From assembly GCF_024502345.1 (NCBI RefSeq), contig NZ_JALDNN010000001.1: DNA of 64,000 nt; one strand, given 5' to 3'. Positions 16,770 through 34,749 of the stretch are shown in pieces; position 1 is the first letter of the stretch, and the number at the start of each line of letters is the position of its first letter. Origin of the DNA: Escherichia coli. Its GTDB lineage: Bacteria > Pseudomonadota > Gammaproteobacteria > Enterobacterales > Enterobacteriaceae. The position numbers were made by a program, and so were the translations under genes. The notes beneath the pieces were generated by a model. That model worked only from the letters and a program-made list of their open reading frames with translations, made no database searches and was not told where the DNA came from.

Positions 16770-17063
16770 TTAAAAGAAGAAGAAAATCAGCCCGACAATG
16801 AGAACAATATCGGCAAGCAATGGGCAAAAAATCCCTTGCCAAAGAACCTTCTGCGGACGAAAGCCCACGCCGTGAATCACACCAGCACAGACGGCCCACA
16901 TCAGCAATAAACCATGCCAGATTTCCAGTTCACTGGTCTTCGCGGCAAAACGAGATGGGTCCCAAAACATACATCCTGCTAACAGAAGCGCCATCACGAA
17001 GGAAAGCGCCCGCAGGGGGCGCTTGTCCATTACCGCATACAAAGTCGCGATAATCTTACTCAT
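16770..17063 (-). CDS. ybgE: Small inner-membrane protein of the cyd operon
   Basis: 97 aa hydrophobic protein immediately downstream of cydX. Confidence 0.85.
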   Translation of the reverse strand: MSKIIATLYAVMDKRPLRALSFVMALLLAGCMFWDPSRFAAKTSELEIWHGLLLMWAVCAGVIHGVGFRPQKVLWQGIFCPLLADIVLIVGLIFFFF

Positions 17064-17176
17064 CAGATGTCTTCTTGACCGGCTTTGCCTGATTCGACGT
17101 GTTCAAGCGCCAGCGCGGTGATTACCCCAAACGAACAGGCAAGAAGCGTTCCCAGAATCCATGCGAAATACCACAT
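17063..17176 (-). CDS. cydX: Cytochrome bd-I oxidase accessory subunit CydX (37 aa)
   Basis: Manual translation of minus strand gives MWYFAWILGTLLACSFGVITALALEHVESGKAGQEDI; its stop overlaps the ybgE start; too short to appear in the ORF track. Confidence 0.85.
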   Translation of the reverse strand: MWYFAWILGTLLACSFGVITALALEHVESGKAGQEDI

Positions 17177-17190
17177 TTTTAGCTCCTTAC

Positions 17191-18330
17191 TTAGTACAGA
17201 GAGTGGGTGTTACGTTCAATATCTTCTTTGGTGATACGACCGAACATTTTCCAGTAACACCAGGCGGTGTAGAGCAGAATGATCGGTACCAGAACCACCG
17301 CAACCCAGGTCATGACGTTAAGCGTCAGCTGGCTGGAAGTTGCATCCCACATTGTCAGACTTGCGTTCATCATGGTGCTGGACGGCATCACAAACGGGAA
17401 CATTGCGATACCGGCTGTCAGGATGATGCAGGCCAGCGCCAGGGAGGAGAACACAAACGCCCACGCGGCTTTATCCATACGTGCAGTCAGGATGGTCAGC
17501 AGCGGCAGAACCACACCCAGTGCCGGAATAGCCCACAGAATTGGCGTGTTGTTGAAGTTAACCAGCCATGCGCCAGCTTCACGAACCACTTCTTTATTCA
17601 GTGGGTTAGAGGCTGCGTAATGGTCCATTGTCGATTTCACGACATAACCATCGATACCGTACATCACCCATACGCCAGCCAGTGCGAAACAGACCAGTGT
17701 CACCAGCGCAGCCACCTGAGCCGTTGCACGGGTACGCAGGTGCAGTTCGCCCACGGTACGCATTTGCAGATAGGTTGCGCCCTGAGTAATGATCATCCCT
17801 ACGCTCACCACGCCTGCCAGCAGGCCGAACGGGTTAAGCAACTGGAAGAAGTTACCGGTGTAGTACAGACGCAGATATTCATCAACGTTGAACGGTACGC
17901 CCTGCAACAGGTTACCGAACGCTACACCAATTACCAGCGGCGGAACGAAGCTACCAATGAAGATGCCCCAGTCCCACATGTTACGCCAGCGGGTTTCTTC
18001 AATCTTGGAGCGGTAGTCAAAACCGACCGGACGGAAGAACAAAGACGCCAGCACGAGGATCATCGCCACATAGAAGCCGGAGAACGCAGCGGCATAGACC
18101 ATCGGCCAGGCAGCAAAGAGTGCGCCGCCCGCGGTGATCAGCCAAACCTGGTTACCGTCCCAGTGTGGTGCAATGGAGTTAATCATAATTCGACGCTCGG
18201 TGTCGTTACGACCGAGGAAACGGGTGAGCATGCCCACCCCCATGTCGAAACCGTCAGTGACTGCAAAACCAATCAGCAGAACGCCAACCAGCAGCCACCA
18301 GATAAAACGCAATACTTCATAATCGATCAT
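17191..18330 (-). CDS. cydB: Cytochrome bd-I ubiquinol oxidase subunit II
   Basis: 379 aa polytopic membrane protein. Confidence 0.93.
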   Translation of the reverse strand: MIDYEVLRFIWWLLVGVLLIGFAVTDGFDMGVGMLTRFLGRNDTERRIMINSIAPHWDGNQVWLITAGGALFAAWPMVYAAAFSGFYVAMILVLASLFFRPVGFDYRSKIEETRWRNMWDWGIFIGSFVPPLVIGVAFGNLLQGVPFNVDEYLRLYYTGNFFQLLNPFGLLAGVVSVGMIITQGATYLQMRTVGELHLRTRATAQVAALVTLVCFALAGVWVMYGIDGYVVKSTMDHYAASNPLNKEVVREAGAWLVNFNNTPILWAIPALGVVLPLLTILTARMDKAAWAFVFSSLALACIILTAGIAMFPFVMPSSTMMNASLTMWDATSSQLTLNVMTWVAVVLVPIILLYTAWCYWKMFGRITKEDIERNTHSLY

Positions 18331-18345
18331 TTGACGACTCCTGTC

Positions 18346-19914
18346 TTAGCGTGCCGGCTGAGTAGTCGTGGAAGACTGCTCAAAGTGATAGCGACCGGTT
18401 TTCAGGCTGCTTGGGCCGAGGCGTGCAAACTTGAACATTAAGAACAATTCTGCCACCAGGAACAGGGTATACAGGCCGCAAATCAGCACCATTGAGAAGA
18501 TGAGATCGCCTGCGGTCAGTGACGAGTTCGCCACAGCTGTCGGCAGCACTTCACCGATAGCCCACGGTTGGCGGCCATATTCAGCCACGAACCAGCCCGC
18601 TTCTACAGCAATCCACGGCAGCGGAATACCGTACAGCGCGGCGCGCAGCAGCCATTTTTTCTCGCCAATGCGGTTGCGGATGACACTCCAGAAAGAGAGC
18701 GCGATGATTGCCAGCAGCAGGAAGCCACACGCCACCATGATACGGAACGCGAAGTACAGCGGCGCTACACGCGGAATGGAGTCTTTGGTTGCCTGTTGAA
18801 TCTGCGCTTCAGTCGCATCAGCCACGTTTGGCGTATAGCGTTTCAGCAGCAGACCGTAACCGAGGTCTTTCTTCATGCTATTGAACTGGTCACGAACTGC
18901 CTGGTCGGTAGAACCAGAACGCAGTTGCTCGAGCAGAGAGTACGCCTTCATCCCGTTACGAATGCGTTCTTCATGCTGCACCATCAGTTCTTTCAGGCCG
19001 ATAACTGGAGTATCCACGGAACGCGTTGCAATGATGCCCAGCGCGTAAGGGATCTGGATCGCAAATTTGTTCGTCTCCTCTTCCTGATCAGGAATGCCGA
19101 ACAGAGTAAAGGCAGCAGGCGCAGGTTGCGTTTCCCACTCGGCTTCAATAGCAGCCAGTTTGGTTTTCTGCACGTCGCCCATTTCGTAACCAGATTCATC
19201 ACCCAGAACAATAACAGACAGAACGGCAGCCATACCGAAGCTGGCAGCGATAGCAAAGGAGCGTTTAGCGAAGGCGAAGTCACGACCTTTCAGCATATAC
19301 CATGCGCTGATACCGAGGATGAACATCGCGCCAGTCACATAACCAGACGCTACAGTGTGAACGAATTTCACCTGAGCAACCGGGTTAAGCACCAGCTCGG
19401 AGAAGCTCACCATCTCCATACGCATAGTTTCAAAGTTGAAATCGGACGCGATTGGGTTTTGCATCCAGCCGTTCGCAACCAGAATCCACAGTGCGGACAG
19501 GTTTGAACCGAGCGCCACCAGCCAGGTGACACACATATGCTGAACTTTACCCAGACGATCCCAACCGAAGAAGAACAGACCTACAAAGGTGGATTCGAGG
19601 AAGAAGGCCATCAGACCTTCGATTGCCAGCGGCGCACCGAAGATATCCCCTACATAGTGGGAATAGTAAGACCAGTTAGTCCCGAACTGGAACTCCATGG
19701 TCAGACCGGTAGCCACACCCAGAGCGAAGTTGATACCAAACAACTTGCCCCAGAACTTGGTCATATCTTTATAAATCTGTTTGCCGGAAAGGACGTAGAC
19801 CGTTTCCATAATGGCCAGCAGGAACGCCATACCGAGCGTCAGTGGCACAAAAAGGAAGTGGTACATCGCGGTCAAGGCAAACTGTAAGCGCGACAGTTCG
19901 ACTATATCTAACAT
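18346..19914 (-). CDS. cydA: Cytochrome bd-I ubiquinol oxidase subunit I
   Basis: 522 aa from [12 protein letters not shown]; ORF-track start is one codon upstream. Confidence 0.93.
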
Positions 19915-20251
19915 CATGACTCCTTGCTCATCGCATGAAGACTCCGAGAGTGAACCCCGTTAGAAAGGGTCACACGCATGCCCCAATACAAAATTATTTG
20001 CTCGCCTCTATCGTTGCCATTTCATCAAAAGAGGAAAAGACAATGATAAAAAAGTTACAAATATGTTAATGAATAAACCAAATTGATCCCGTAATTATAT
20101 TACGCCGCAAAATCCTTACAATAAACAGGTTTTTATTGAGCAAATTTGCATTTTTCGACAGTGATCAATTTATAGCGAAATTGTCACGATCTCACCAATT
20201 TGATCTACGACAATTTATCGTGTTTTGCAGATTTTTTTCAAGAATTAAAAA

Positions 20252-20265
20252 TTGATTTATATCAA
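20252..20265. promoter_or_regulatory. FNR-type palindrome in the long AT-rich cydA upstream region
   Basis: Perfect TTGAT-N4-ATCAA (ttgatttatatcaa) about 340 bp upstream of the cydA start codon. Confidence 0.5.
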
Positions 20266-20719
20266 AACCAACCAAATATGTTAATTATGTATAAACCATA
20301 GATCATTGGTGATTTTATTGTTAATTTATTGTGAAATATTTATGCAACACAATTATTACAATGAAAAGGTATAGATAAAAAACCAGTGTTTTATTTAACA
20401 GAACCGCCCAATCAACTTTTTATAATACCAATTGATTAGAGTAGCCAATTTGTTGCTATTTTACATAACATATTTTTATCAAAGTTAATTGATTGTTGCC
20501 TTTATGAGCACCGACCGTAAGCCCGTTATGTTATTGTTTCATTAGTAATAATCACTTAAATGTATCGATGAAACAGGTATGACTTACCGGGAGTGATTGT
20601 TTCTGAGTGAACAGAGGCCACTTTCGCCTGATAAATGAAAAATGAGCGATTTTTGCAAGTTAGTTTTTCTATAGCCGAGTACGCTCAGCGCCTCGCTTGA
20701 TTACAATGAGGTTGCTGCT

Positions 20720-21664
20720 ATGAGTCCTGATAATATCGGTTCGGCTGTCAATCGCTTCTCAGGTTGGCCATCTAATGATCCTCTAAAAACAGATGAAGAA
20801 TCAATGAAATCACCCGTGACTGTGCAAGTAATAAAGATGATTGCCGCCATCCTTGACCCACATCGGATAGTCGTTGGAATTGATACACTTTATACAACGC
20901 AGCGCGAAACATTTACCTCAGAGAGTCAACAGCTCATTGAATCAGCATTGCAAACACTTCATGTGATGAATTTAAATAATCTGGAAACAAATCGCGATGA
21001 AGAAGGTCACTATCTGGCTTTTGAATATAACGTTGACACCTCTGACAGAATAACCGTTTCTGCTTATAATGAAAAAAAGCCTGGCTGCTATGGCCAATGT
21101 CTTTTAATACAGGATGACGAAACAGACTTATTTAACCTGATAAAAATTAAAATTTTCGAAGCCAGGCATAATTATGTCGCTCAATTGATGAGCGATCCGG
21201 AATTTATGTTCAAATTCAGTTATAGCGCTCAACAAAATAGATTAGAACCTCATCTTCTGGTTCCCGCTTATTTCCCTCTAAAAACAAACGAACCGGTTAC
21301 GCAAGAGGATGTACTGTTACTTTATCGTTTCTTTAAAATGAATGATGATTTTAATAAATTAACATCAGAGGAATACATGAGTATCATGACTCCTCTGATG
21401 AAGTGTGAGCGTAGCGTCCACGACAACAACAGGTATGTGACGGGCAAAGATACCCATCTTCTGGACTATCCTCCTTCTGGTAACCAGATACATTTCCATA
21501 TTTTTCCTGACGAATCAGCAACACTAGTCCTTTATTTTTCAAACAATGACCTTGAATGTTTCGTCTTTGAAAGAGATATTCCTAGCCAGTATCGCTTTTT
21601 CAAAATGTTTACCAATCTGGCACTGGTTATAGATCAGTTAACCGAAGCCAATAAAATACTTTAA
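20720..21664 (+). CDS. Hypothetical protein, 314 aa, low-GC, no recognisable domain
   Basis: Long ORF with GAGG RBS 9 nt upstream; GC visibly lower than flanking core genes; polar Ser/Thr/Asn-rich N-terminus; absent from the K-12 arrangement. Confidence 0.6.
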   Translation: MSPDNIGSAVNRFSGWPSNDPLKTDEESMKSPVTVQVIKMIAAILDPHRIVVGIDTLYTTQRETFTSESQQLIESALQTLHVMNLNNLETNRDEEGHYLAFEYNVDTSDRITVSAYNEKKPGCYGQCLLIQDDETDLFNLIKIKIFEARHNYVAQLMSDPEFMFKFSYSAQQNRLEPHLLVPAYFPLKTNEPVTQEDVLLLYRFFKMNDDFNKLTSEEYMSIMTPLMKCERSVHDNNRYVTGKDTHLLDYPPSGNQIHFHIFPDESATLVLYFSNNDLECFVFERDIPSQYRFFKMFTNLALVIDQLTEANKIL

Positions 21665-21744
21665 TTTTCTATATATCCCTATGGCAAATATTGCTAAACA
21701 ATGCCTGGGGATTAATTTTTATTACTCACGGAAAGATTTAAATA

Positions 21745-22167
21745 ATGATACCATCTCAGATCTCTTTCAATACCCTTCCAGTCAATGCAACATACGCTTC
21801 AGAGACAACAGTTGACACACAAAAATTCTCTGACATCCTCTACTCAGCGGGGTGTTCCCTAAAGGATATGGCTTATCTGAGCAGATGTCTGGCATCAATA
21901 CACCCGACTCTCGCCAAAAACATTTATGAAACAGAAAATCTCAGCGATCAAAAATTACTGCATATTGATTGCCGTAGTACAAATGACATCAAGATAAATA
22001 TCTTTTTTGGTCAGCAACGAGAAGGATTAATTGAAATTAGTTCTGACACAGTTATTTTTTCGATACTGTCTTCATTGATTGACTCCGCCATTTCTAAATT
22101 TCAACATCAAAACCCCGTTAACGGTTCAGTTAATCCTGAACTATTGTATAAGGATTATACTGATTAA
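21745..22167 (+). CDS. Hypothetical protein, 140 aa, low-GC
   Basis: ORF 80 bp downstream of the 314 aa ORF, same strand and same composition; Ser/Thr/Ile-rich N-terminus. Confidence 0.5.
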   Translation: MIPSQISFNTLPVNATYASETTVDTQKFSDILYSAGCSLKDMAYLSRCLASIHPTLAKNIYETENLSDQKLLHIDCRSTNDIKINIFFGQQREGLIEISSDTVIFSILSSLIDSAISKFQHQNPVNGSVNPELLYKDYTD

Positions 22168-22714
22168 ACCCACCCAGTCGCGAAAAATGGCCTGCGTTAT
22201 TGCCAGACGTAATAAAACCGTTGATTAACGTTACTCATACTGGTAGCACCTTCATGTACCTCTCTTTTTTACGAAAAATCAAAAGAGCTAACTAAGGTCA
22301 TAATTCGCATGAATCATTAACCATTTGTTATTTTCAACATTATTTTTACATTAAGCAGAAATGAATTGCAGTGAAATTCGACTTAAATCTTATGAAATGC
22401 ATTTACTCATGGCTAAAACCACGTCACAAAAATGCAAATTAGAAGTAGATCACAATTATCTCAATACATTAAATCAAGTTAATTTTAAAAATTTAACATT
22501 CATGTCATTAGTTGACATAACACACTGAATTAACATGGAAATTTAAAAACACACTTTAAACAATCATTTCCCGAAAGACATTTTGAAAATAGATCAATTG
22601 CAACATTACGGTCAGATAAAGACACTCCTGTGATATTAAACCTGTGCCGTTATGAACGGCCATAAATACGACGTGTGTAACTTATTTTACTCTCTGTCTT
22701 ACAAAGGATTACCC

Positions 22715-23164
22715 ATGAAGAAAGCAACACTTGTGATTGGCGTTATTGGCGCGGACTGCCATGCAGTAGGCAATAAAGTTCTGGACCGCGTTTTTAGCAA
22801 CCACGACTTCAGAGTCATTAATCTGGGCGTAATGGTCAGCCAGGACGAATATATTGATGCTGCCATCGAAACTGGCGCTGACGCGATTATCGTCTCCTCT
22901 ATCTATGGGCATGGCGATATCGACTGTCTGGGCATGCGCGAACGCTGCATCGAGCGTGGACTGGGTGACATCCTCCTCTATGTGGGCGGTAACCTGGTGG
23001 TCGGAAAACATGACTTCGCTGACGTGGAAACCAAGTTCAAAGAGATGGGATTTGATCGCGTCTTTGCCCCAAGTCATGACTTAGAAGATGTTTGTCAGCT
23101 GATGGCCCACGATATCAATCAACGTCATGACGTTGATACTCGTATTCTTGAAGAGGCTATCTGA
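22715..23164 (+). CDS. glmS: Glutamate mutase (methylaspartate mutase) S subunit, B12-binding
   Basis: 149 aa from [22 protein letters not shown] (cobalamin-binding DxHxxG-type motif); RBS aagga upstream; ORF-track start at 22652 is an extension. Confidence 0.85.
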
Positions 23165-24552
23165 TGCAAATCGTCTCTGTCGATATTGGATCGACGTGGA
23201 CCAAAGCTGCCCTCTTCACCCGGGAGGGGGACGCGTTAACGTTGGTTAACCACGTACTGACCCCAACCACCACCCATCATCTGGCGAAGGGGTTTTTCTC
23301 CAGCCTGAACCAGGTGTTAAACGTAGATAATGCCCTCCCCCTGTTAAACAGCGGTGAGGTTGCATTGAAGTATTCCTCCTCTGCCAAAGGTGGGCTGGCG
23401 GTTGCCGCAATGGGATTGGTGCCTTCTATCACCCTGGAAACCGCGAAAGTAACCGCTCACTCTGCGGGGGCTAAAATTGCGCAATATTACGCCTACAAGC
23501 TGAACCGCCGTGATATCCAGGCACTGGAAGAAACGCAGCCCGATATTCTCTTGTTCACCGGCGGCACCGACGGCGGAGAAGAAAGCTACGGACTGAATAA
23601 CGCCCGTGTGCTGGCAGAATCCAAACTCGACTGCGCCATTATTTATGCCGGAAACCGGGATATTCAGGACGAGGTGCAGGAGATCCTCGGGCATAAAGAC
23701 CTGACCATCGTCGACAATGTTCTGCCCGATCTTGACCATCCGAACCCTTTAGCCGCACGCCAGGCTATTTGCGACATATTCCTTAAACGCATCGTTAAAG
23801 GGAAAGGGCTGGATGTCATTGTTGATAAAACAGGCGAAGAACCAATGCCGACACCATGGACGGTCTTTGAACTGGTCAAGGCAATCAGTAACGTCGATCA
23901 CAGCTGGAAAGAGTTCATGCTGATCGACATGGGCGGCGCAACCACCGATGTTTATTCCGCCGGTGCCAACACGCTCTCGCCCGACACCGTTTTACACGGC
24001 GTACCGGAACCCTTCGTAAAACGGACGGTGGAAGGCGATCTGGGAATGCGCGTCTCGGCAGTGGTGGTTGGTGAAAGTGCGAAAGAGTTAGTCAATGTGA
24101 ATTTTGCTCAGCAACCCGCACAGCTGGACGCTTTTTATCATTACCTCCGTCATCTAGTCGCTCATCCCGACTACTTACCCGCAAATGCAGAAGAGAAATA
24201 TTTCGATACCGTCCTGGCCGGACTGTGTGTGGGTTATGCCACCGAAAGACATGCGGGCACCAAAAAAGAGGTCTGCACCTGCGTCGGCAATGTCGATTTA
24301 CAGATGGGACGTGACCTGACAACCGTGCGTAAAGTCGTCGGATCCGGCGGATGGCTCTCGCGTGCCAGTCAGTTCGATATGCATCACTGGTTGAAATACC
24401 GCGAGTTAAACGACGACGGTAAACGCATTCTCTTACCGACCGAATTTGAATATTACCGCGATTCCCGGGGGCTATTACCACTGCTGGCAAACGTCGCCAG
24501 AGTCGATCCGCTGGCCGCCGCGCGCACCAGTATTCAATGCTTAACCCTATAA
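23164..24552 (+). CDS. glmL: Glutamate mutase-associated protein GlmL (MutL-like)
   Basis: 462 aa; start overlaps the glmS stop (ATGA); sits between the S and E subunits as in clostridial glutamate mutase operons. Confidence 0.8.
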   Translation: MQIVSVDIGSTWTKAALFTREGDALTLVNHVLTPTTTHHLAKGFFSSLNQVLNVDNALPLLNSGEVALKYSSSAKGGLAVAAMGLVPSITLETAKVTAHSAGAKIAQYYAYKLNRRDIQALEETQPDILLFTGGTDGGEESYGLNNARVLAESKLDCAIIYAGNRDIQDEVQEILGHKDLTIVDNVLPDLDHPNPLAARQAICDIFLKRIVKGKGLDVIVDKTGEEPMPTPWTVFELVKAISNVDHSWKEFMLIDMGGATTDVYSAGANTLSPDTVLHGVPEPFVKRTVEGDLGMRVSAVVVGESAKELVNVNFAQQPAQLDAFYHYLRHLVAHPDYLPANAEEKYFDTVLAGLCVGYATERHAGTKKEVCTCVGNVDLQMGRDLTTVRKVVGSGGWLSRASQFDMHHWLKYRELNDDGKRILLPTEFEYYRDSRGLLPLLANVARVDPLAAARTSIQCLTL

Positions 24553-24570
24553 CAATTAAGGCTGCAATCA

Positions 24571-26016
24571 ATGGAACTTCGAAATAAGAAATTAACCCAT
24601 GACGAATTCATGACCGAGCGGCAACAGGTACTGAAAACCTGGGAAACCGGCAAGGATGTTGAAAACTTTGAAGATGGCGTTAAATACCAACAAAACATTC
24701 CTGAGCATAAACGCTTCTCTCATGCCCTGCTGAAAGCAGACAAGGAAGGTAAAACCCTTAGCCAACCGCGCGCAGGTGTGGCGCTGATGGACGAACACAT
24801 CGAACTGCTGAAAACACTACAAGAAGAGTGCGATCTGCTGCCAAGCACCATCGATGCATATACCCGTCTGAATCGGTACGAAGAAGCGGCTGTAGGGATT
24901 AAAAAATCCATCGAAGCCGGAACCTCTAAACTGAACGGTTTACCGGTAGTTAACCATGGTGTCGCAGCTTGCCGTCGCCTCACCGAAACCCTGCAAAAAC
25001 CGCTACAGATCCGCCACGGCACGCCAGATGCGCGTCTGCTGGCTGAAATCTCAATGGCCAGCGGCTTTACCAGTTATGAAGGCGGTGGCATTTCCTACAA
25101 CATTCCGTATGCCAAACGTGTAACGCTGGAAAAATCGATCCGCGACTGGCAGTACTGCGACCGTTTAATGGGGATGTACGAAGAACACGGGATCCGCATC
25201 AACCGCGAACCGTTTGGCCCACTAACGGGTACGCTGATCCCGCCGTTTATCTCGCACTCTATCGCGATAATCGAAGGCTTGCTGGCGCTGGAACAGGGTG
25301 TGAAATCTATCACCGTTGGTTATGGCCAGGTCGGCAGCCTGACGCAGGATGTTGCGGCGATCCAGTCTCTGCGTGAACTTGCACACGAATACTTTCAGAG
25401 CTATGGCTATACCGACTATGAATTAAGTACCGTGTTTCACCAGTGGATGGGCGGCTTTCCGGAAGACGAATCGAAAGCGTTCGCTATTATCTCCTGGGGC
25501 GCAGCCGTCGCGGGGATGTCTGGTGCCACCAAACTCATCACCAAAAGTCCGCACGAAGCCTGGGGCATTCCGACTGCCGCTGCCAACATTCAGGGGCTGA
25601 AAGCCTCCCGCCAGATGCTCAACATGGTCAATGAGCAGAAATTCCCGCCGTGCCCTGCGGTTGAACTGGAAATTGAACTGATTAAGAGCGAGGTTCGCGC
25701 AGTACTGAATAAAGTGTTCGAACTGGGTAATGGTGATATTGCGCGCGGAACGGTGCTGGCATTTGAAGCGGGCGTACTGGATGTGCCGTTTGCGCCAGCC
25801 GCCTGCAACGCGGGCAAAATTCTTCCGGTCCGTGACAACACCGGCGCGATACGCGTACTGGAAGCCGGAGCCGTTCCATTGCCAAAAGATATTCTCGACC
25901 TCCACCACGATTACGTTGCGGAACGCGCACGCTGTGAAGGACGCCAACCGACATTCCAGATGGTTGTAGATGACATCAATGCTGTATCCCACAGTAAATT
26001 AATAGGAAGACCATAA
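24571..26016 (+). CDS. glmE: Glutamate mutase (methylaspartate mutase) E subunit
   Basis: 481 aa, typical E-subunit size and operon position. Confidence 0.85.
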   Translation: MELRNKKLTHDEFMTERQQVLKTWETGKDVENFEDGVKYQQNIPEHKRFSHALLKADKEGKTLSQPRAGVALMDEHIELLKTLQEECDLLPSTIDAYTRLNRYEEAAVGIKKSIEAGTSKLNGLPVVNHGVAACRRLTETLQKPLQIRHGTPDARLLAEISMASGFTSYEGGGISYNIPYAKRVTLEKSIRDWQYCDRLMGMYEEHGIRINREPFGPLTGTLIPPFISHSIAIIEGLLALEQGVKSITVGYGQVGSLTQDVAAIQSLRELAHEYFQSYGYTDYELSTVFHQWMGGFPEDESKAFAIISWGAAVAGMSGATKLITKSPHEAWGIPTAAANIQGLKASRQMLNMVNEQKFPPCPAVELEIELIKSEVRAVLNKVFELGNGDIARGTVLAFEAGVLDVPFAPAACNAGKILPVRDNTGAIRVLEAGAVPLPKDILDLHHDYVAERARCEGRQPTFQMVVDDINAVSHSKLIGRP

Positions 26017-27257
26017 TGAAAATAAAACAGGCCCTGTTCACCGCTGGCTATTCCTCATTCTATTTCGATGACCAGCAGGCGATAAAAAACGGAGCGGGTC
26101 ATGACGGCTTTTTTTATACCGGGGAGCCGGTAACACAGGGGTTTAACGCCGTTCGTCAGGCCGGGGAGTGCGTATCGGTACAGTTGATTCTGGAAAACGG
26201 CGCGGTCGCCGTAGGTGACTGTACTGCCGTACAGTATTCCGGGGCAGGCGGTCGCGATCCACTGTTCCTCGCAGAGCACTTTATTCCGTTCCTCAACGAC
26301 CATATCAAGCCATTACTGGTAGGCCGCGATGTGGATGCTTTCCTGCCGAATGCCCGTTTCTTCGACAAATTGCGTATTGACGGCAACTTGCTGCATACCG
26401 CCGTGCGCTACGGATTATCACAGGCGCTGCTTGATGCTACCGCGCTGGCAACCGGCCGTCTGAAAACTGAAGTGGTCTGTGATGAATGGCAGTTGCCACG
26501 CGTGGCGGAATCCATTCCATTATTTGGTCAGAGCGGCGACGATCGATATATCGCCGTCGATAAGATGATCCTTAAAGGCATCGACGTGCTGCCCCATGCG
26601 CTGATTAATAACGTCGAAGAGAAGCTGGGCTTTAAAGGTGAAAAACTGCGCGAATATGTCCACTGGCTGTCGGATCGCATTCTGAGCAAGCGCACCAGCG
26701 CACGCTACCACCCAACCCTGCACATCGATGTATACGGCACTATCGGTCTGATCTTCGATATGGATCCGCTTCGCTGTGCGCAATACATCGCCAGCCTGGA
26801 AAAAGAAGCGCAAGGCCTGCCGCTCTACATCGAAGGGCCGGTCGATGCCGGTAACAAGCCCGATCAAATTCGCCTGCTGACCGCGATTACCAAAGAGCTG
26901 ACGCGCCTCGGTTCCGGCGTGAAAATTGTGGCCGATGAATGGTGTAACACCTACCAGGATATTGTTGATTTCACTGATGCTGCCAGTTGTCACATGGTGC
27001 AAATCAAAACCCCGGATCTGGGCAGTATTCACAACATCGTCGATGCGGTTCTTTACTGCAACAGCCACAGCATGGAAGCGTACCAGGGCGGCACCTGCAA
27101 TGAAACTGATGTCAGTGCCCGCACCTGTGTCCACGTCGCCCTTGCCGCTCGCCCTATGCGTATGCTGGTAAAACCAGGGATGGGCTTTGACGAAGGCCTC
27201 GATATCGTCTTCAACGAAATGAATCGTACTATCGCGCTGTTGCAGGCTAAGGATTAA
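26016..27257 (+). CDS. mal: 3-Methylaspartate ammonia-lyase (methylaspartase)
   Basis: 413 aa; N-terminus (FYFDDQ.AIK.GAGHDGF.YTG ... AVQYSGAGGRDPLFLA) closely resembles clostridial methylaspartase (enolase superfamily). Confidence 0.9.
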   Translation: MKIKQALFTAGYSSFYFDDQQAIKNGAGHDGFFYTGEPVTQGFNAVRQAGECVSVQLILENGAVAVGDCTAVQYSGAGGRDPLFLAEHFIPFLNDHIKPLLVGRDVDAFLPNARFFDKLRIDGNLLHTAVRYGLSQALLDATALATGRLKTEVVCDEWQLPRVAESIPLFGQSGDDRYIAVDKMILKGIDVLPHALINNVEEKLGFKGEKLREYVHWLSDRILSKRTSARYHPTLHIDVYGTIGLIFDMDPLRCAQYIASLEKEAQGLPLYIEGPVDAGNKPDQIRLLTAITKELTRLGSGVKIVADEWCNTYQDIVDFTDAASCHMVQIKTPDLGSIHNIVDAVLYCNSHSMEAYQGGTCNETDVSARTCVHVALAARPMRMLVKPGMGFDEGLDIVFNEMNRTIALLQAKD

Positions 27258-27260
27258 CAA

Positions 27261-28631
27261 ATGGCTCGTTCTTTTAAAGTCTTATCGCCAACGGCAATCC
27301 TCGGGTATGGATTCCCGGAAGAGAGCTTCCGCAAAGCGATGGCAGAATCGCCCGATCTGATCGCCGTTGATGCAGGCTCTTCCGATCCAGGCCCCCACTA
27401 CCTCGGGGCAGGCAAACCGTTTACCGATCGCGCAGGGGTCAAGCGCGATCTGCGCTATATGATCACCGCAGGCGTGCAAAATAATATACCGGTGGTGATC
27501 GGAACGGCTGGCGGTTCTGGTGCCGCACCACACCTGGAGTGGTGCCGAGAAATAATTCATGAGATTGCCCGGGAAGAGCACCTCTCGTTCTCGATGGCGC
27601 TGATCCCGGCAGACGTTGACAAAGCCATCGTCCACCAGGCGCTGGATAACGGCAAAATCACGGCGCTGGAGTTTGTCCCGCCGTTAACCCACGACGCGAT
27701 TGACGAAAGTACGTATATCGTCGCGCAAATGGGCATCGAACCCTTCCAGCGTGCGCTAAAAGAAGGCGCGCAAGTGGTGCTGGGTGGGCGCGCTTACGAC
27801 CCGGCCTGCTTTGCTGCGCTACCGATCATGCAAGGCTTTGATGAAGGTCTGGCGCTGCATTGTGGGAAAATCCTTGAGTGCGCAGCAATCGCCGCAACGC
27901 CCGGCTCAGGCTCTGACTGTGCGATGGGCATCATTGATGACAACGGCTTTACGCTGAAGACATTTAATCCGAAGCGTAAATTTACCGAAACGTCAGCAGC
28001 TGCACACACACTGTATGAGAAATCCGATCCTTACTTCCTGCCAGGACCTGGCGGCGTGTTGAATCTGAAAGGCTGCACATTTAAAGCGGTCAATAACGGC
28101 GAAGTGTACGTCAGCGGTTCTAAGCATGAAGAAACGCCGTATGCCCTGAAACTGGAAGGTGCACGACGGGTGGGCTTCCGCTGTCTGACCATCGCCGGAA
28201 CGCGCGACCCGATTATGATCGCCGGGATCGATAAAATCATCGATGAAGTCAAAACCAGCGTTTCGCGTAACCTGTCGCTCGACGATGACAGCATTCGCAT
28301 CAATTTCCACCTGTACGGCAAAAACGGGGTGATGGGAGACCATGAACCGATGCAAACTGCCGGGCATGAGCTGGGGATTGTCCTTGATGTAGTTGCACCG
28401 ACCCAGGAAATTGCCAACAGCGTTTGCTCGCTGGTGCGCTCTACCATGCTGCACTACGGCTATGAAAACCGCATCGCTACCGCAGGCAATCTGGCGTTCC
28501 CGTTCTCCCCTTCTGATATCCAGGGCGGGCCGGTATACGAATTTTCCATATATCACCTGATTGAAGCCAACGACGCTCTGCGTTTTGATTTCCATATTGA
28601 ACAGGTGACGCCAGAAGGAGTTCAGGCATGA
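27261..28631 (+). CDS. Uncharacterised conserved protein (tentatively AtuA-like/DUF1446 type), translationally coupled to mal
   Basis: 456 aa ORF starting 3 nt after the mal stop; normal GC; family assignment is from memory and needs an HMM search. Confidence 0.7.
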   Translation: MARSFKVLSPTAILGYGFPEESFRKAMAESPDLIAVDAGSSDPGPHYLGAGKPFTDRAGVKRDLRYMITAGVQNNIPVVIGTAGGSGAAPHLEWCREIIHEIAREEHLSFSMALIPADVDKAIVHQALDNGKITALEFVPPLTHDAIDESTYIVAQMGIEPFQRALKEGAQVVLGGRAYDPACFAALPIMQGFDEGLALHCGKILECAAIAATPGSGSDCAMGIIDDNGFTLKTFNPKRKFTETSAAAHTLYEKSDPYFLPGPGGVLNLKGCTFKAVNNGEVYVSGSKHEETPYALKLEGARRVGFRCLTIAGTRDPIMIAGIDKIIDEVKTSVSRNLSLDDDSIRINFHLYGKNGVMGDHEPMQTAGHELGIVLDVVAPTQEIANSVCSLVRSTMLHYGYENRIATAGNLAFPFSPSDIQGGPVYEFSIYHLIEANDALRFDFHIEQVTPEGVQA

Positions 28632-28945
28632 AACAGTCAATTGTCTCACTGGCGCAAGTCATTCGTTCGAAAAATGCCGGACCTTACGAACTGGTTTTAG
28701 ATATTTTATTTAAAACGAAAGAAAACTATGAGCGAGTTAAATCATCAGGGCAATTAACCCCAGAACTGATTGCGCGCTTATATCATGTTGAACCTGACTT
28801 TATTCATCGTATTGTCTGGTTTGATCCTTCTAACGCAGTAAAAATCGTCATGCCACGAGATATTATCTCCGGGAATGTAGGTGACAATGATGTCTATGGT
28901 GCACAGCAACATGCACCTTTATTAAATATGAGTTTCGATTTGTAA
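28628..28945 (+). CDS. Small uncharacterised protein (tentatively DUF4387 type), overlaps upstream gene by 4 nt
   Basis: 105 aa ORF with ATGA overlap to the 456 aa ORF; last gene of the operon. Confidence 0.6.
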   Translation: MKQSIVSLAQVIRSKNAGPYELVLDILFKTKENYERVKSSGQLTPELIARLYHVEPDFIHRIVWFDPSNAVKIVMPRDIISGNVGDNDVYGAQQHAPLLNMSFDL

Positions 28946-29084
28946 AAATCCGAATACTTTTAGCCAACTGACATCCCGTCACTTATTACAGTTCAACACT
29001 TCAGCTATTTGTAAGGTTGTAATAGCAGGTAGATGCCTGAATCTCTATTCAGGCATCTACTTCTCCTGATTCTGATTTATCGCC

Positions 29085-29378
29085 GTGCACCTGATGGAGG
29101 AAAAAATGAAGAAAATAAGTTTAACCACGATGATTCTTTTGGCGCTGGTACTTGGAATGATTATCGGCGTAGTGCTCAATAACACTGTTTCACCGGAAAC
29201 AGCAAAACTCTATGCGCAAGAAATATCGATATTCACGACGATTTTCTTACGACTGATAAAAATGATTATCGCTCCGTTAGTGGTCTCTACCCTGGTGGTA
29301 GGTATTGCTAAAATGGGAGATGCCAAAGCCCTTGGTCGTATTTTTTCTAAAACACTCTTTTTATTTATTTGCGCCTCA
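29085..29378 (+). pseudogene. 5' fragment (about 98 codons) of a GltP/DctA-family dicarboxylate/amino-acid:cation symporter, truncated by IS1
   Basis: N-terminus [23 protein letters not shown]...[30 protein letters not shown] matches the conserved first TM segments of GltP-type symporters; frame runs into the IS1 left end and stops at 29405. Confidence 0.8.
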
Positions 29379-29433
29379 GGTGATGCTGCCAACTTACTGA
29401 TTTAGTGTATGATGGTGTTTTTGAGGTGCTCCA

Positions 29434-29709
29434 GTGGCTTCTGTTTCTATCAGCTGTCCCTCCTGTTCAGCTACTGACGGGGTGGTGCGTAACGGCAAAA
29501 GCACCGCCGGACATCAGCGCTATCTCTGCTCTCACTGCCGTAAAACATGGCAACTGCAGTTCACTTACACCGCTTCTCAACCCGGTACGCACCAGAAAAT
29601 CATTGATATGGCCATGAATGGCGTTGGATGCCGGGCAACCGCCCGCATTATGGGCGTTGGCCTCAACACGATTTTCCGCCATTTAAAAAACTCAGGCCGC
29701 AGTCGGTAA
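29434..29709 (+). CDS. insA: IS1 InsA protein
   Basis: 91 aa [43 protein letters not shown]... Confidence 0.95.
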
Positions 29710-30131
29710 CCTCGCGCATACAGCCGGGCAGTGACGTCATCGTCTGCGCGGAAATGGACGAACAGTGGGGATACGTCGGGGCTAAATCGCGCCAGCGCTG
29801 GCTGTTTTACGCGTATGACAGGCTCCGGAAGACGGTTGTTGCGCACGTATTCGGTGAACGCACTATGGCGACGCTGGGGCGTCTTATGAGCCTGCTGTCA
29901 CCCTTTGACGTGGTGATATGGATGACGGATGGCTGGCCGCTGTATGAATCCCGCCTGAAGGGAAAGCTGCACGTAATCAGCAAGCGATATACGCAGCGAA
30001 TTGAGCGGCATAACCTGAATCTGAGGCAGCACCTGGCACGGCTGGGACGGAAGTCGCTGTCGTTCTCAAAATCGGTGGAGCTGCATGACAAAGTCATCGG
30101 GCATTATCTGAACATAAAACACTATCAATAA
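29628..30131 (+). CDS. insB: IS1 InsB reading frame (expressed as InsAB' transposase by -1 frameshift)
   Basis: 167 aa ORF in the -1 frame overlapping the insA 3' end; classic IS1 organisation. Confidence 0.9.
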
Positions 30132-30146
30132 GTTGGAGTCATTACC

Positions 30147-30555
30147 AATCGCCGTTATTAGCTAAAGAATGAATATTAACAATAATATCGGGATGTAACT
30201 TTGTGAATTCATGTAAATTTGGGATTAACCAGTGGGTACTAAAAGTAGGATTAACGGCAAGTTCAATAACCTGAACCGTAGGCTGCCAGGTCATAATGGT
30301 ATTGGTATCGCGTTCCAGCTTATTTAATGTTTCTTTTACTATCCCCAGGTAATACTTCCCTGCATCATTAAGAAAAATGCGTTTTTTAGAGTGTGAAAAT
30401 AACGGAGTACGTAAAAATTCCTCCAGCGCACTTACTTGTCTGAATACTGCACTTTGGGTTAACGCTAACTCCTCTGCCGCTCTGGTATAACTTTCATGAC
30501 GTGCGACGACCTCAAAAGTCACCAGCAGTTCCGTTTTAGGTATTTTCCCTCGCAT
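30147..30555 (-). pseudogene. 5' fragment (about 136 codons) of a LysR-family transcriptional regulator, truncated by IS1
   Basis: N-terminal HTH typical of LysR (TFEVVARHESYTRAAEELALTQSAVFRQVSALEEFL); reading frame runs into the IS1 right end. Confidence 0.8.
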
Positions 30556-31107
30556 AATGCCGTCCCTTAAAAATAGTTTAAACCATCAAAAATACATTAC
30601 TTATTACGAAGTAATGGTAACAAAGCAGCAATAAATAATTTATAAGAATCATGATTGACATTTATAAACCAGTAAGGCTGGCGTGACAAATATCTTAATC
30701 AGATAATAATAATCCGAAAAGCACAGCGCCTTTCGAATTATCCGGAATCACATTAAGTGAAAATTATTAAATTGATATCATTTATCATATCTGTGGATAT
30801 TATGATAAACAATCAACAAAGATTTTATTTTTGATTTATAGCATATCCATCTAAGAATTTTTGCGATGCTGCAATATCCGGGGTAAAGACCCGATCCTGG
30901 CTGACAAATGGCACGACTTGACGAAAAGCGGTGAACATCGCTTTTGTTGATTTACTTAACGCTACGGTCAAACGCTGGGAAGCCAGTGCATCAGGTAACG
31001 ATTCGAAATTCGCCGTCGTTCTTATTCGTGGCTTGCGGTCGGTCGCGGCAATCCACAGTGGCTGTGGTCATGCAGTCAAGCCTGCAGTCAGATTTCGACC
31101 GTGGTTA

Positions 31108-31140
31108 ACCGTTTAAGGTATAAAAAAGGCCATCATACGA
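31108..31140 (-). terminator. Rho-independent terminator downstream of sucD
   Basis: Minus-strand hairpin ggccatcgtatgatggcc followed by TTTTTTAT. Confidence 0.65.
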
Positions 31141-31220
31141 TGGCCAACCATGTCGAAACCGACAGCCCTTCGCCATTCCTGTAGAGGGAAGCGGCGAGGG
31201 CTATTTCTTATTACAGATAT
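31110..31220 (-). ncRNA. sdhX: Possible SdhX (RybD) sRNA from the sucD 3' UTR
   Basis: About 100 nt between the sucD stop and the terminator, the position where the 3'-UTR-derived sRNA lies in K-12; sequence identity not verified. Confidence 0.4.
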
Positions 31221-32090
31221 TTATTTCAGAACAGTTTTCAGTGCTTCACCGATATCCGCCAGGCTGCGAACGGTTTTCACGCCTGCGGCTTCCAGAGCAG
31301 CGAATTTCTCATCCGCAGTCCCTTTCCCACCGGCAATGATGGCACCCGCGTGGCCCATACGTTTGCCTTTCGGCGCAGTCACACCAGCGATGTAACCCAC
31401 AACTGGCTTGGTAACGTGCTCTTTGATGTACGCAGCTGCTTCTTCTTCAGCGCTACCGCCGATCTCACCGATCATCACGATCGCTTCGGTCTGCGGATCT
31501 TTTTCGAACATTTCGAGAATGTCGATAAAGTTAGAGCCAGGGATCGGGTCACCGCCGATACCGACACAGGTCGACTGACCGAAACCGTAATCCGTGGTCT
31601 GTTTAACCGCTTCATAGGTCAGTGTACCGGAACGGGAAACGATACCCACTTTACCCGGTTTGTGAATGTGACCCGGCTGGATACCGATTTTGCATTCACC
31701 CGGAGTGATAACGCCCGGGCAGTTCGGGCCGATCATACGAACGCCGGCTTCGTCCAGTTTCACTTTCACAGTCAGCATATCCAGCGTCGGGATGCCTTCA
31801 GTGATGGTGATAATCAGTTTGATGCCTGCATCAATAGCTTCCAGAATGGAGTCTTTGCAGAACGGTGCTGGTACGTAGATAACAGAAGCGGTAGCGCCAG
31901 TAGCAGCAACAGCTTCACGCACGGTGTTGAACACCGGCAGGCCGAGGTGGGTAGTACCGCCTTTACCTGGGGTTACGCCGCCAACCATTTTAGTGCCGTA
32001 TGCAATGGCCTGTTCTGAGTGGAAAGTCCCCTGGCTACCAGTAAAGCCCTGGCAGATAACCTTGGTGTTTTTATCAATTAAAATGGACAT
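31221..32090 (-). CDS. sucD: Succinyl-CoA synthetase alpha subunit
   Basis: 289 aa. Confidence 0.95.
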
Positions 32091-33256
32091 TATTTCCCCT
32101 CCACTGCGGCAACAACCTGCTGAGCTGCATCCGTCAGACCTTTTGCTGCAATAATATTCAGGCCGCTGTCAGCCAGTTTCTTCGCGCCGAGTTCGGCGTT
32201 GTTACCTTCCAGACGTACCACGACCGGTACGTTAACACCCACTTCTGCTACCGCGCCGATGATACCGTCAGCGATCAGGTCGCAACGAACGATACCGCCG
32301 AAGATGTTAACCAGAACGGCTTTCACTTTGTCGTCAGAGAGGATGATTTTGAACGCTTCGGTTACACGTTCTTTGGTTGCGCCGCCGCCAACGTCAAGGA
32401 AGTTAGCCGGTTCGCCGCCGTGCAGTTTAACGATGTCCATCGTACCCATCGCCAGACCTGCGCCGTTAACCATACAACCGATGTTACCGTCCAGCGCAAC
32501 GTAGTTCAGTTCCCACTGTGCAGCCTGTGCTTCACGCGGATCTTCCTGCGACTGGTCACGCATTTCGCGCAGATCAGGCTGGCGGAACAGTGCGTTGCCA
32601 TCAGCGCCCAGTTTGCCGTCGAGGCAAATCAGATCGCCCTGTTTGGTAATGACCAGCGGGTTGATTTCGATCAGCGCCAGGTCACGCTCCAGGAAAATGG
32701 TCGCCAGGCCCATGAAGATTTTGGTGAACTGCTGAACCAGTTTACCTTCCAGACCCAGTTTGAACGCCAGCTCGCGTCCCTGATACGGCATCGGGCCAGT
32801 CAGCGGATCAAGCGCAACTTTGTGGATCAGGTGCGGAGTTTCTTCCGCCACTTTTTCGATTTCCACGCCGCCTTCGGTAGAGGCCATAAAGACCACGCGA
32901 CGTGAACTACGGTCTACAACGGCACCGAGATACAGCTCTTTAGCGATATCGGTCGCCGCTTCAACCAGAATCTGGTTAACCGGTTGGCCATTGGCATCTG
33001 TTTGATACGTTACCAGACGCTTGCCCAGCCAGTTTTCTGCAAAAGCACGGATGTCTTCTTTACTGTTTACAACTTTCACACCGCCCGCTTTACCGCGGCC
33101 ACCAGCGTGAACCTGACATTTCACTACCCACGGACCGGCACCGATTTTTGAAGCGGCTTCTTCTGCTTCGCGCGGAGTAGTACAGGCATAACCCACCGGT
33201 GCTGGTAAGCCATAGCGGGCAAAAAGTTGTTTTGCCTGATATTCATGTAAGTTCAT
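32090..33256 (-). CDS. sucC: Succinyl-CoA synthetase beta subunit
   Basis: 388 aa ([16 protein letters not shown]...); stop overlaps the sucD start. Confidence 0.95.
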
Positions 33257-33329
33257 GTGTTCTGTCCATCCTTCAGTAATCGTTATCTTTTAAACCGTAG
33301 ACCGAATATTTCGTATCGCTTCCGGGTAT

Positions 33330-33525
33330 TGTCGGTCACCCGTAGGCCTGATAAGACGTGTAAGCGTCGCATCTGGCATCGCTTGTCGGATGCGGCGCGA
33401 GCGCCTTATCCGACCTACATCGGTGCTTCCCGTAGGCCTGATAAGACGCGTTAAGCGTCGCATCAGGCTTCAATTGCCGGAGAAGGCGATAATGTCTTAT
33501 CCGGTCTACAGTGCAGGTGAAACTT
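33330..33525. repeat. BIME/REP cluster in the sucB-sucC intergenic region
   Basis: Repeated gcctgataagacg...cgcatc palindromic units. Confidence 0.6.
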
Positions 33526-33531
33526 AAACTA

Positions 33532-34749
33532 CTACACGTCCAGCAGCAGACGCGTCGGATCTTCCAGCAACTCTTTGATTGTTAACAGGAAGCCAACGGA
33601 TTCGCGACCATCGATCAGACGGTGATCGTAGGACAGCGCCAGGTACATCATCGGCAGGATCTCAACCTGACCATTCACAGCCATCGGACGATCTTTGATA
33701 GCGTGCATACCCAGAATTGCGCTCTGCGGCGGGTTGATGATAGGCGTAGACATCAGGGAACCGAACACACCACCGTTGGTGATGGTGAAGTTACCACCGG
33801 TCAGATCTTCAACCGTCAGCTTGCCGTCACGGCCTTTAACTGCCAGCTCTTTGATTTTCTTCTCGATGTCTGCCATGCCGAGGGTATCGACATCACGCAG
33901 TACCGGCGTCACCAGGCCGCGCGGCGTAGAAACCGCCATGCTGACGTCGAAATAGTTGTGGTAAACCACGTCATCGCCGTCGATAGAAGCATTCACTTCC
34001 GGGTAACGTTTCAGGGCTTCAACCACCGCTTTCACGTAGAAGGACATAAAGCCCAGACGGATGCCGTGGCGTTTTTCAAATGCTTCACCGTACTGCTTAC
34101 GCAGATCCATAATCGGCTTCATGTTGACTTCGTTGAACGTGGTCAGCATGGCGGTGGAGTTTTTCGCTTCCAGCAGACGCTCTGCCACACGCTTACGCAG
34201 GCGAGTCATCGGGACACGTTTTTCGCTACGTGCAGCCAGAGCCGGTTGCGCCGCCGGAGCAGCCGCTGCCGGAGCAGACTCTTTCGCCGGAGCTTTCGCC
34301 AGATGTTTTTCCACATCTTCACGGGTCAGACGACCACCCACACCGGTGCCTTTAATGGCGCTGGCGTCGAGGTTATGTTCAGCCAGCAGGCGACGGATCG
34401 CCGGGCTTAACGCATCGTTGTTTTGCTCTTCCAGAGACGCCTGCTGGCGTTGCGCCGGAGTGGACGCTTTCTCTTCAGATTTGGCGCTGGTTTCTTTACC
34501 GGCGCTGTTGCCTTCACGCAGGCGACCAAGGATCTGACGAGACGTTACCGTTGTACCTTCATCTTCCAGAACCGCATCCAGAATGCCATCTGCTGATGCC
34601 GGTACTTCCAGTACCACTTTGTCAGTTTCGATTTCTACCAGCACTTCATCACGTACGACTGCGTCGCCGGGTTTTTTATGCCAGGTTGCGACGGTGGCAT
34701 CGGCTACGGATTCAGGCAGGTCAGGGACCAGAATATCTACGCTACTCAT
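33532..34749 (-). CDS. sucB: 2-Oxoglutarate dehydrogenase E2 (dihydrolipoyllysine succinyltransferase)
   Basis: 405 aa; lipoyl domain, Ala/Pro linker, catalytic domain. Confidence 0.95.

Follow-up and report, generated by a model that had tools for sequence, protein, structure and literature searches.

A gene cluster for the breakdown of glutamate through 3-methylaspartate was described in Escherichia coli O157:H7 by Kronen and Berg in 2015, with FumD as a mesaconase/fumarase and GlmL in the role of a reactivating chaperone; the DUF1446 gene of the cluster was then of unknown function and the fate of citramalate unclear (PMC4682846). In clostridia, a two-subunit mesaconase and a CitDEF-type citramalate lyase are used (PMC4682846). 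According to a 2026 preprint, the Cml enzyme of Raoultella planticola, obtained as a gift from the Berg laboratory, cleaves citramalate directly to pyruvate and acetate. Here we compare with these systems a 64 kb window of E. coli DNA (the whole stretch analyzed, from contig NZ_JALDNN010000001.1), and in particular its interval of ~11 kb between cydA and sucD, located from the listing of open reading frames (ORFs) and from base composition. Judged by sequence comparison, the interval appears to be the known enterobacterial methylaspartate-pathway island, damaged by a deletion linked to the insertion sequence IS1 and representing one state of a modular slot, a reading to which we give a probability of about 0.88. 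Published work already covers the island with its enzymes and its patchy occurrence among pathogenic and commensal E. coli, and solved structures now name the CmlAB step, formerly the last unknown one.

Glutamate-breakdown genes and the IS1-linked loss

A megablast search with positions 18300–33300 against 5,426 complete E. coli genomes, the set that also underlies all slot and junction counts given below, returns near-full-length matches at 98–99% identity in O157:H7 and other strains. The annotation of O157:H7 Sakai lists for this region cydA, two hypothetical genes, glutamate mutase S, L and E, methylaspartate ammonia-lyase, two misnamed genes, a transporter, a fumA-like gene, a cob(I)alamin adenosyltransferase, a regulator and sucD. 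Pairwise BLAST reveals that the window is collinear with Sakai over 17000–29378 and again from 30147 onwards; the IS1 element lying in between occupies the place of 3,910 bp in Sakai (locus L001, 12581–16490). The features of this part of the interval are the following:

22715–23164 (+): glmS, B12-binding subunit S of glutamate (methylaspartate) mutase; NCBIfam NF002612, 252.5 bits, cut-off 110
23164–24552 (+): glmL (mutL), accessory/reactivating protein of the mutase; NF040745, 508.9 bits, cut-off 475
24571–26016 (+): glmE, catalytic subunit E of glutamate mutase; TIGR01503, 864 bits, cut-off 390
26016–27257 (+): mal, 3-methylaspartate ammonia-lyase; TIGR01502, 542.7 bits, cut-off 286
27261–28631 (+): cmlA, citramalate lyase subunit A (AtuA/DUF1446 family), 456 aa; PDB 9ERQ/9EVF chain A, full length, ~91% identity
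28628–28945 (+): cmlB, citramalate lyase subunit B (DUF4387), 105 aa; PDB 9ERQ chain B, full length, E = 5e-57
29106–29378 (+): 5' stub of a GltP-like glutamate/dicarboxylate symporter, 91 of 426 codons; tblastn with Sakai ECs0758, residues 1–91 only
29379–30146 (+): IS1, 768 bp, insA and insB intact; terminal inverted repeats readable directly, InsA and InsB ORFs
30145–30555 (−): 5' stub of a LysR-type regulator, 137 of 301 codons (helix-turn-helix domain and linker); tblastn with Sakai ECs0755, residues 1–137

Six genes, from glmS to cmlB, are intact, with neither frameshifts nor stop codons. The first four pass the individual cut-offs of equivalogs, i.e. curated NCBIfam models, and the ORFs of glmS, glmL and glmE have full length relative to Sakai; in the case of glmS the NF002612 match begins at residue 22 of a longer ORF, and the Sakai annotation has the same start. 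The products of cmlA and cmlB, the start of the latter overlapping the stop of the former, receive no name from NCBIfam. Their identity comes from the PDB, where the chains concerned are called 'Citramalate lyase, subunit A (cmlA)' (9ERQ and 9EVF) and 'Citramalate lyase, subunit B (cmlB)' (9ERQ chain B). The idea that this AtuA/DUF4387 pair is unassigned and possibly the missing citramalate-cleaving step was rejected, as the PDB search shows the pair to be solved and named. The genes of this pair, which in the island often go by the names "3-methylaspartate ammonia-lyase", "acyl-CoA synthetase" or "AtuA family", should be annotated as cmlA and cmlB. In comparison with Sakai and EC19, the six enzyme genes have a ratio of nonsynonymous to synonymous divergence (dN/dS) of 0.04–0.16 at a synonymous divergence (dS) of 0.014–0.11, the flanking cydA and sucD having a dS of 0.011–0.089.

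Downstream of cmlB the picture is one of truncation. Within the missing 3,910 bp lie most of the gltP-like transporter gene, fumD, cobO for the cobalamin adenosyltransferase and the lysR 3' part; the product of fumD is the mesaconase, a class I fumarase paralogue. By tblastn, Sakai FumD is without a match in the window, and cobO is likewise absent from it. The transporter stub gives a partial GltP match in NCBIfam, and the matches of the LysR stub, which is devoid of the effector-binding domain, are limited to the N-terminal part of LysR-type models. The IS1 copy shares 99.9% identity with an annotated IS1B in strain 14EC033. No 9-bp target duplication surrounds it, the flanks (tgcgcctca and aatcgccgt) being different. 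Taken together, the missing target duplication and the 3,910 bp gone at this very site are the signature of a deletion and not of a simple insertion; the site fits an origin by deletion or by recombination between two IS1 copies. The contents listed by the first-pass annotation, made from the sequence alone (hypothetical low-GC genes, a glutamate-fermentation operon, a transporter fragment, IS1 and a LysR fragment), are thus all present.

The intact version of the cluster (Sakai ECs0755–ECs0767) would form an operon glmS-glmL-glmE-mal-cmlA-cmlB-gltP-fumD-cobO accompanied by the convergent gene of the LysR-type regulator. In the proposed route, the GltP-like symporter would bring in glutamate, which adenosylcobalamin-dependent GlmS/GlmE would convert into 3-methylaspartate, GlmL keeping the mutase active; Mal would deaminate 3-methylaspartate to mesaconate, FumD would add water to yield (S)-citramalate, and CmlAB would split citramalate into pyruvate and acetate. 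CobO would be the source of the adenosylated cofactor. Since the identity of CmlAB is known, the route from glutamate to pyruvate and acetate is complete on paper. In strains with the IS1 allele, the presence of glmE or mal is insufficient to score a complete pathway.

A 30-nt element, gaaagacattttgaaaatagatcaattgca (22573–22602), is located ~115 nt upstream of glmS. It is 96–100% conserved in Citrobacter sedlakii and C. amalonaticus, the intergenic DNA around it being not alignable, and could serve the glm operon as an operator or promoter element.

The slot between cydA and sucD

Alignment of the region with K-12 and pathogenic E. coli, as proposed by the first-pass annotation, defines the junctions and reveals a variable slot, of which at least six configurations exist among the 5,426 complete genomes, as annotated sequences show directly. 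In K-12 (NC_000913.3) the order is sucD-sdhX-mngR-mngA-mngB-cydA, as had been claimed, and the mng genes are indeed absent from the interval studied here: tblastn with K-12 MngR, MngA and MngB against the whole 64 kb window (E ≤ 1e-3) gives zero matches. The genes mngRAB are found in 3,887 genomes, and the block from glmS to cmlB in 1,135 (~21%). A third state, in which a tetratricopeptide repeat (TPR) gene alone lies directly beside sucD, is found in 546 genomes, and an ST131-type slot with TPR gene and mngRAB in ~570. The junction between rtcB and mngB, which marks slots holding both modules, is found in 134 genomes; if these are taken to count under both mngRAB and the glm block, the census closes, its sum (3,887 + 1,135 + 546 − 134) being 5,434 against 5,426 genomes. 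The TPR gene of the ST131-type slot (locus L006, 10097–11290; locus L007, 10949–12064) has an internal stop in one uropathogenic strain (locus L010), and the ST131-type TPR protein has no tblastn match in the whole window (E ≤ 1e-3).

Two strains illustrate the compound forms. In DA33137 (locus L111, 9932–30499) the slot reads cydA-hypA-hypB-glmSLE-mal-cmlAB-gltP-fumD-cobO-lysR-rtcB-mngB-mngA-mngR-sucD. In EC19 the island is followed by hutH-hutG-hutI-hutD-permease-hutU, then by rtcB and then by sucD, an extension by hut genes shared by 144 genomes; this block of hut genes and rtcB (locus L005, 16168–26841) adjoins the glutamate cluster directly, and the K-12 slot has no such genes. The breakpoint between the states with and without mng lies 10 nt past the rtcB stop codon, the sequence continuing either into the mngB side or into the sdhX terminator. 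As DA33137 holds island and mngRAB together, the two coexist in its slot. The claim that the segment replaces mngRAB is thus an oversimplification that finds no support in view of the 134 genomes with the rtcB-mngB junction, of DA33137 with its complete island, rtcB and mngBAR, and of Citrobacter sedlakii, which also holds both. On the other hand, the composite make-up and the variability of the slot, also part of that claim, are borne out by the IS1-linked loss, the hutH and rtcB scars described below, the separate low-GC module and the number of configurations. The slot would hence be modular, composed of hypAB, glm-cml-lysR, hut, rtcB, mngBAR and the TPR gene, with lineages differing mainly by deletions.

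The flanks, scars and orphan genes of the interval are the following:

18346–19917 (−): cydA, conserved left flank; 100% amino-acid identity to Sakai cydA
19918–20555 (no strand): DNA upstream of cydA, a diverged allele outside the island, from alignment with K-12 and ST131-type strains
20720–21664 (+): hypA, orphan gene, 314 aa, ~38% GC; ORF, function without assignment
21745–22167 (+): hypB, orphan gene, 140 aa; ORF, function without assignment
30828–31016 (−): hutH-like ammonia-lyase gene, two fragments, a deletion scar; tblastn with EC19 HAL, residues 511–556 (85%) and 378–397 (90%)
31020–31119 (+): rtcB fragments including the stop codon, a deletion scar; 89% to internal EC19 rtcB (locus L005, 26568–26624), plus the last 42 nt
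31120–31220 (−): sdhX small RNA (sRNA)/sucD 3' untranslated region and terminator, right slot border; 100% to the K-12 sdhX region from 31122 on
31221–32090 (−): sucD, conserved right flank; 100% amino-acid identity to Sakai sucD

The hutH-like scar also aligns by blastn with EC19 at 87% identity (locus L005, 16649–16709). Both genes are whole in EC19, and their remnants in the window thus indicate an earlier loss of roughly 10 kb; the O157-type island is thus itself a deletion derivative of a larger segment. At least two successive deletions have accordingly shaped the window, the first removing hut and rtcB and the second being the IS1-linked loss.

The limits of the interval given by the first-pass annotation (19918–31107) require adjustment: the interval is real, but slot-specific DNA begins only at ~20556, as seen from alignment with K-12 and ST131-type strains, and the right junction with K-12 lies at 31121/31122. 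Upstream of cydA, ~73 bp are exactly those of K-12; beyond them identity to K-12 is only ~81% up to 20290, where homology stops to restart at 31122, at which point the sdhX sRNA and sucD terminator end. Up to 20555 the same region is ~90% identical to ST131-type strains, and this version is common to ST131-type and TPR-only strains. The cydA gene itself is 98–99% identical to K-12 despite the diverged upstream region (19990–20555), through which short conserved blocks are scattered. The control region of cydAB seems to exist as two old alleles that are linked with the slot content.

The terminator hairpin at 31145–31128 is that of sucD/sdhX, and is the only meaningful site from consensus scans for promoters and terminators, which otherwise gave sites not above those of shuffled sequence. 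A search of 19000–33000 with Rfam at gathering thresholds gives zero families; no cobalamin riboswitch is reported before glmS, and sdhX is likewise unreported. Farther to the right, a 196-bp block resembling repetitive extragenic palindromes (33306–33501) separates sucB from sucC in the window and in K-12, and is absent in O157 Sakai.

The two low-GC orphan genes next to cydA, hypA and hypB, encode proteins unrelated to each other. The hypA product has no match in Pfam, NCBIfam, PADLOC or PHROGs, and hypB none in Pfam, NCBIfam or PADLOC and only a marginal one in PHROGs (E = 0.094). Homologues of hypA are restricted to Escherichia in protein sets of 5.8 billion and 1.84 billion sequences, and a full HMMER scan of the 1.84 billion representative proteins recovers only fragments of the same Escherichia orphan protein; those of hypB are restricted to E. 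coli, Shigella and E. albertii. The Shigella dysenteriae 1617 homologue spans only 45% of hypB, which is intact in the window. The AlphaFold2 model of hypA, built from an alignment of 5 sequences, is too poor to use (mean predicted local distance difference test score of 51). The retained ORFs together with dN/dS values of 0.4–0.5 for hypA and ~0.2 for hypB suggest real but fast-evolving genes. In an Escherichia locus from SRR11658232 (flanks ~90–95% identical), a hypA homologue with 64% identity adjoins cydA and no glm cluster is present. Conversely, the glm cluster of Escherichia sp. E1V33 comes without hypAB, homology to the window restarting at 22426; hypAB is therefore a separate module. 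The slot of the SRR11658232 locus (L091, 11786–12562) consists of cydA, the hypA homologue, an unrelated 258-aa protein and sucD, the 258-aa protein having an N-terminal signal-like sequence and no Pfam match.

A wider scheme can be proposed tentatively. It sees in the cydA–sucD interval an old, Enterobacteriaceae-wide modular catabolic locus, of which the K-12, O157 and window states might be deletion products of a compound ancestor resembling DA33137 or EC19. The form extended by hut would then link histidine, via glutamate, to pyruvate and acetate in one contiguous route, and the orphan pair next to the diverged cydA upstream DNA would be a further module.

Alternative readings of the locus

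Several observations weigh against a damaged pathway island residing in a modular slot. No condition was found by Kronen and Berg for expression of the intact O157 cluster or for growth on glutamate (PMC4682846). Since the intact cluster could not be induced in the laboratory, the pathway is only putatively functional in E. coli generally. The LysR-type protein is a putative activator or repressor of the operon by assumption, and the six intact genes could fit a very recent deletion or a core still in use alike. The K-12 state may derive by deletion from a compound ancestor or by insertion of mngRAB, in either direction. Finally, the comparison with E1V33 (locus L011, 2918–12276) is discordant, with a dS of 0.41–0.77 for the cluster and of 0.05–0.14 for the flanks cydA, sucC and sucD, which suggests either a recombinational exchange of alleles or an old polymorphism. 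The cluster genes of E1V33 are 3–5 times more diverged from the window at synonymous sites than its flanks, and the locus is without gltP and cobO.

The pathway of the window is probably not inducible as a unit any more, and would be silent or at best rely on housekeeping substitutes: FumA/FumB for mesaconate hydration, a housekeeping adenosyltransferase and other glutamate carriers. It could be argued instead that the core glmSLE-mal-cmlAB still works after the deletion with such substitutes filling the gaps, and that loss of the regulator could even free expression. Indeed, the six genes are intact and carry the signature of purifying selection against Sakai and EC19, FumA and FumB also hydrate mesaconate (PMC4682846), and the allele persists, being found in several gut metagenomes. 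Moreover, glmSLE-mal-cmlAB occur together in Proteobacteria, Aminicenantes, Riflebacteria, Verrucomicrobia, Lentisphaerae, Spirochaetes and Acidobacteria, a core conserved across phyla, and fumD, gltP and cobO are missing more often in the loci examined. However, dN/dS mostly records the time before the deletion, the regulator is left without its effector-binding domain and even the intact cluster was not inducible in the laboratory. The right-hand block, the portion lost in the window, is present in 1,127 genomes as compared with 1,135 for the left block from glmS to cmlB; it is thus seldom lost alone (in only ~8 of 1,135 cluster-bearing complete genomes) and normally kept. We therefore regard a working core as unlikely, and retain the damaged island as the preferred reading.

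The first-pass annotation had taken the interval for an accessory segment, by implication a recently acquired one, and a recent foreign genomic island, put between cydA and sucD in one event and displacing mngRAB, would explain the low-GC blocks at both ends of the interval, the absence of the island from K-12, the presence of an IS element and the patchy distribution in ~21% of E. coli genomes. Blocks of different GC content had been claimed, and base composition bears them out: GC content is 28–41% over 20000–22700, 50–57% over 22750–28500, 39–42% over 28500–29250 and 36–41% over 30000–31000. The glm-cml genes themselves, at 50–57%, are core-genome-like, which argues against such an island. 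In addition, no tRNA is found within 17000–34000, no member of an integrase family among the window ORFs and no meaningful direct repeat flanking the interval, which thus has none of the hallmarks of a classical integrative genomic island (tRNA/tmRNA attachment site, integrase and flanking direct repeats). These sequence features indicate that the window segment is not a mobile island. Within E. coli the island and its flanks have similar dS values, and the 134 genomes with the rtcB-mngB junction and DA33137, with complete island and mngRAB, speak against displacement.

Further evidence comes from other genera, through a GlmE scan of one genome per species combined with a protein panel (80 loci examined). 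Several Citrobacter species, Klebsiella oxytoca, Salmonella enterica subsp. arizonae, Pseudescherichia vulneris and further Escherichia have the cluster in the cydA–sucD slot, and in Citrobacter sedlakii this slot reads cydA-mngB-mngA-mngR, followed by the cluster. At the amino-acid level the cluster is 85–93% identical to that of Salmonella arizonae, as compared with 96% for cydA and sucD, and the longer cluster genes have a dS of ~1.1–1.5; this divergence is compatible with long residence of the cluster. Thus, the same slot across genera, the divergence from arizonae and the absence of tRNA, integrase and repeats make a recent foreign acquisition unlikely. The claim of recent acquisition is accordingly doubtful, and a one-event island displacing mngRAB has in our view a very low probability.

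Hardly credible, finally, is an assembly artefact in which a collapsed repeat joined two contigs and so mimicked a loss of 3.9 kb. In its favour, IS1 is a repeat with multiple copies at which short-read assemblies frequently break, and not one complete RefSeq E. coli genome (0/5,426) has the exact left IS1 junction. Against it, independent assemblies and metagenomes contain the exact chimeric stub ORFs of both junctions again, and comparable but different IS-linked erosions exist in 14EC033, 23CRST031, ETEC4077 and DETEC-P649. In other assemblies, the stub ORFs running into IS1 occur on 14 and 18 contigs, including GCA_050022275.1 and human gut metagenomes, one of which (ERZ27268145) contains both junctions; their recurrence in independent assemblies indicates that the IS1 allele is real and circulating.

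The erosions in the other strains differ from that of the window. In 14EC033 an IS1 lies in the same orientation with both junctions displaced (198 bp and 309 bp); a common origin of this deletion and that of the window was considered and judged unlikely, as neither junction is shared. In 23CRST031 only a LysR fragment is left, between IS903B and IS1. There (locus L104, 7976–10800) the island is almost wholly erased, the LysR fragment measures 600 nt and the IS1 is a frameshifted IS1A. ETEC4077 and DETEC-P649 have IS1 within the glm block, and strain A34 has a deletion from cmlA to lysR with no IS. The damage in the window thus appears as one instance of a recurrent erosion of the island.

Comparison with described systems

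The closest described system is the Sakai/EDL933 cluster of O157:H7 (ECs0755–ECs0767; Kronen and Berg 2015, PMC4682846), which lies in the same slot with the same gene order and is 99% identical at the nucleotide level over 12.4 kb and 3.2 kb. The two orphan genes, glmSLE, mal, cmlAB and the hutH and rtcB scars are common to both; unlike Sakai, the window is without the 3,910 bp comprising 3' gltP, fumD, cobO and 3' lysR, and has IS1 there instead. The EC19 and DA33137 variants are 98–99% identical to the window in the cydA-proximal part (hypAB and glmS to cmlB). They differ between lysR and sucD, where EC19 has kept the hut genes and rtcB and DA33137 has kept rtcB and mngBAR, whereas the window has only the short hutH and rtcB scars.

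Deletion of adjacent DNA mediated by IS1 is an established behaviour of this element. The site in the window resembles such events in its complete IS1, the lack of a target duplication and flanks collinear with the intact reference, and recombination between two IS1 copies leads to the same product.

As compared with the clostridial pathway (Clostridium tetanomorphum/C. tetani type), the first three steps rely on homologous enzymes (GlmS/MutS, GlmL/MutL, GlmE/MutE and Mal), and both routes end in pyruvate and acetate. The enterobacterial type is distinguished by the single-chain FumD and by CmlAB (AtuA/DUF4387), unrelated to the clostridial lyase; among the 80 loci, cmlAB were not found in those titled Clostridia, Bacillota, Sporomusaceae or their genera.

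With the mngRAB locus of K-12 (mannosylglycerate phosphotransferase system and hydrolase), the island shares the cydA–sucD interval and the adjoining sdhX terminator. The two have no sequence in common, and mngRAB is not an allele of the island, its place in the compound slot being between rtcB and sdhX. Being neighbours in a modular slot and not alternative alleles, mngRAB and the glm island should therefore not be treated as one presence/absence character.

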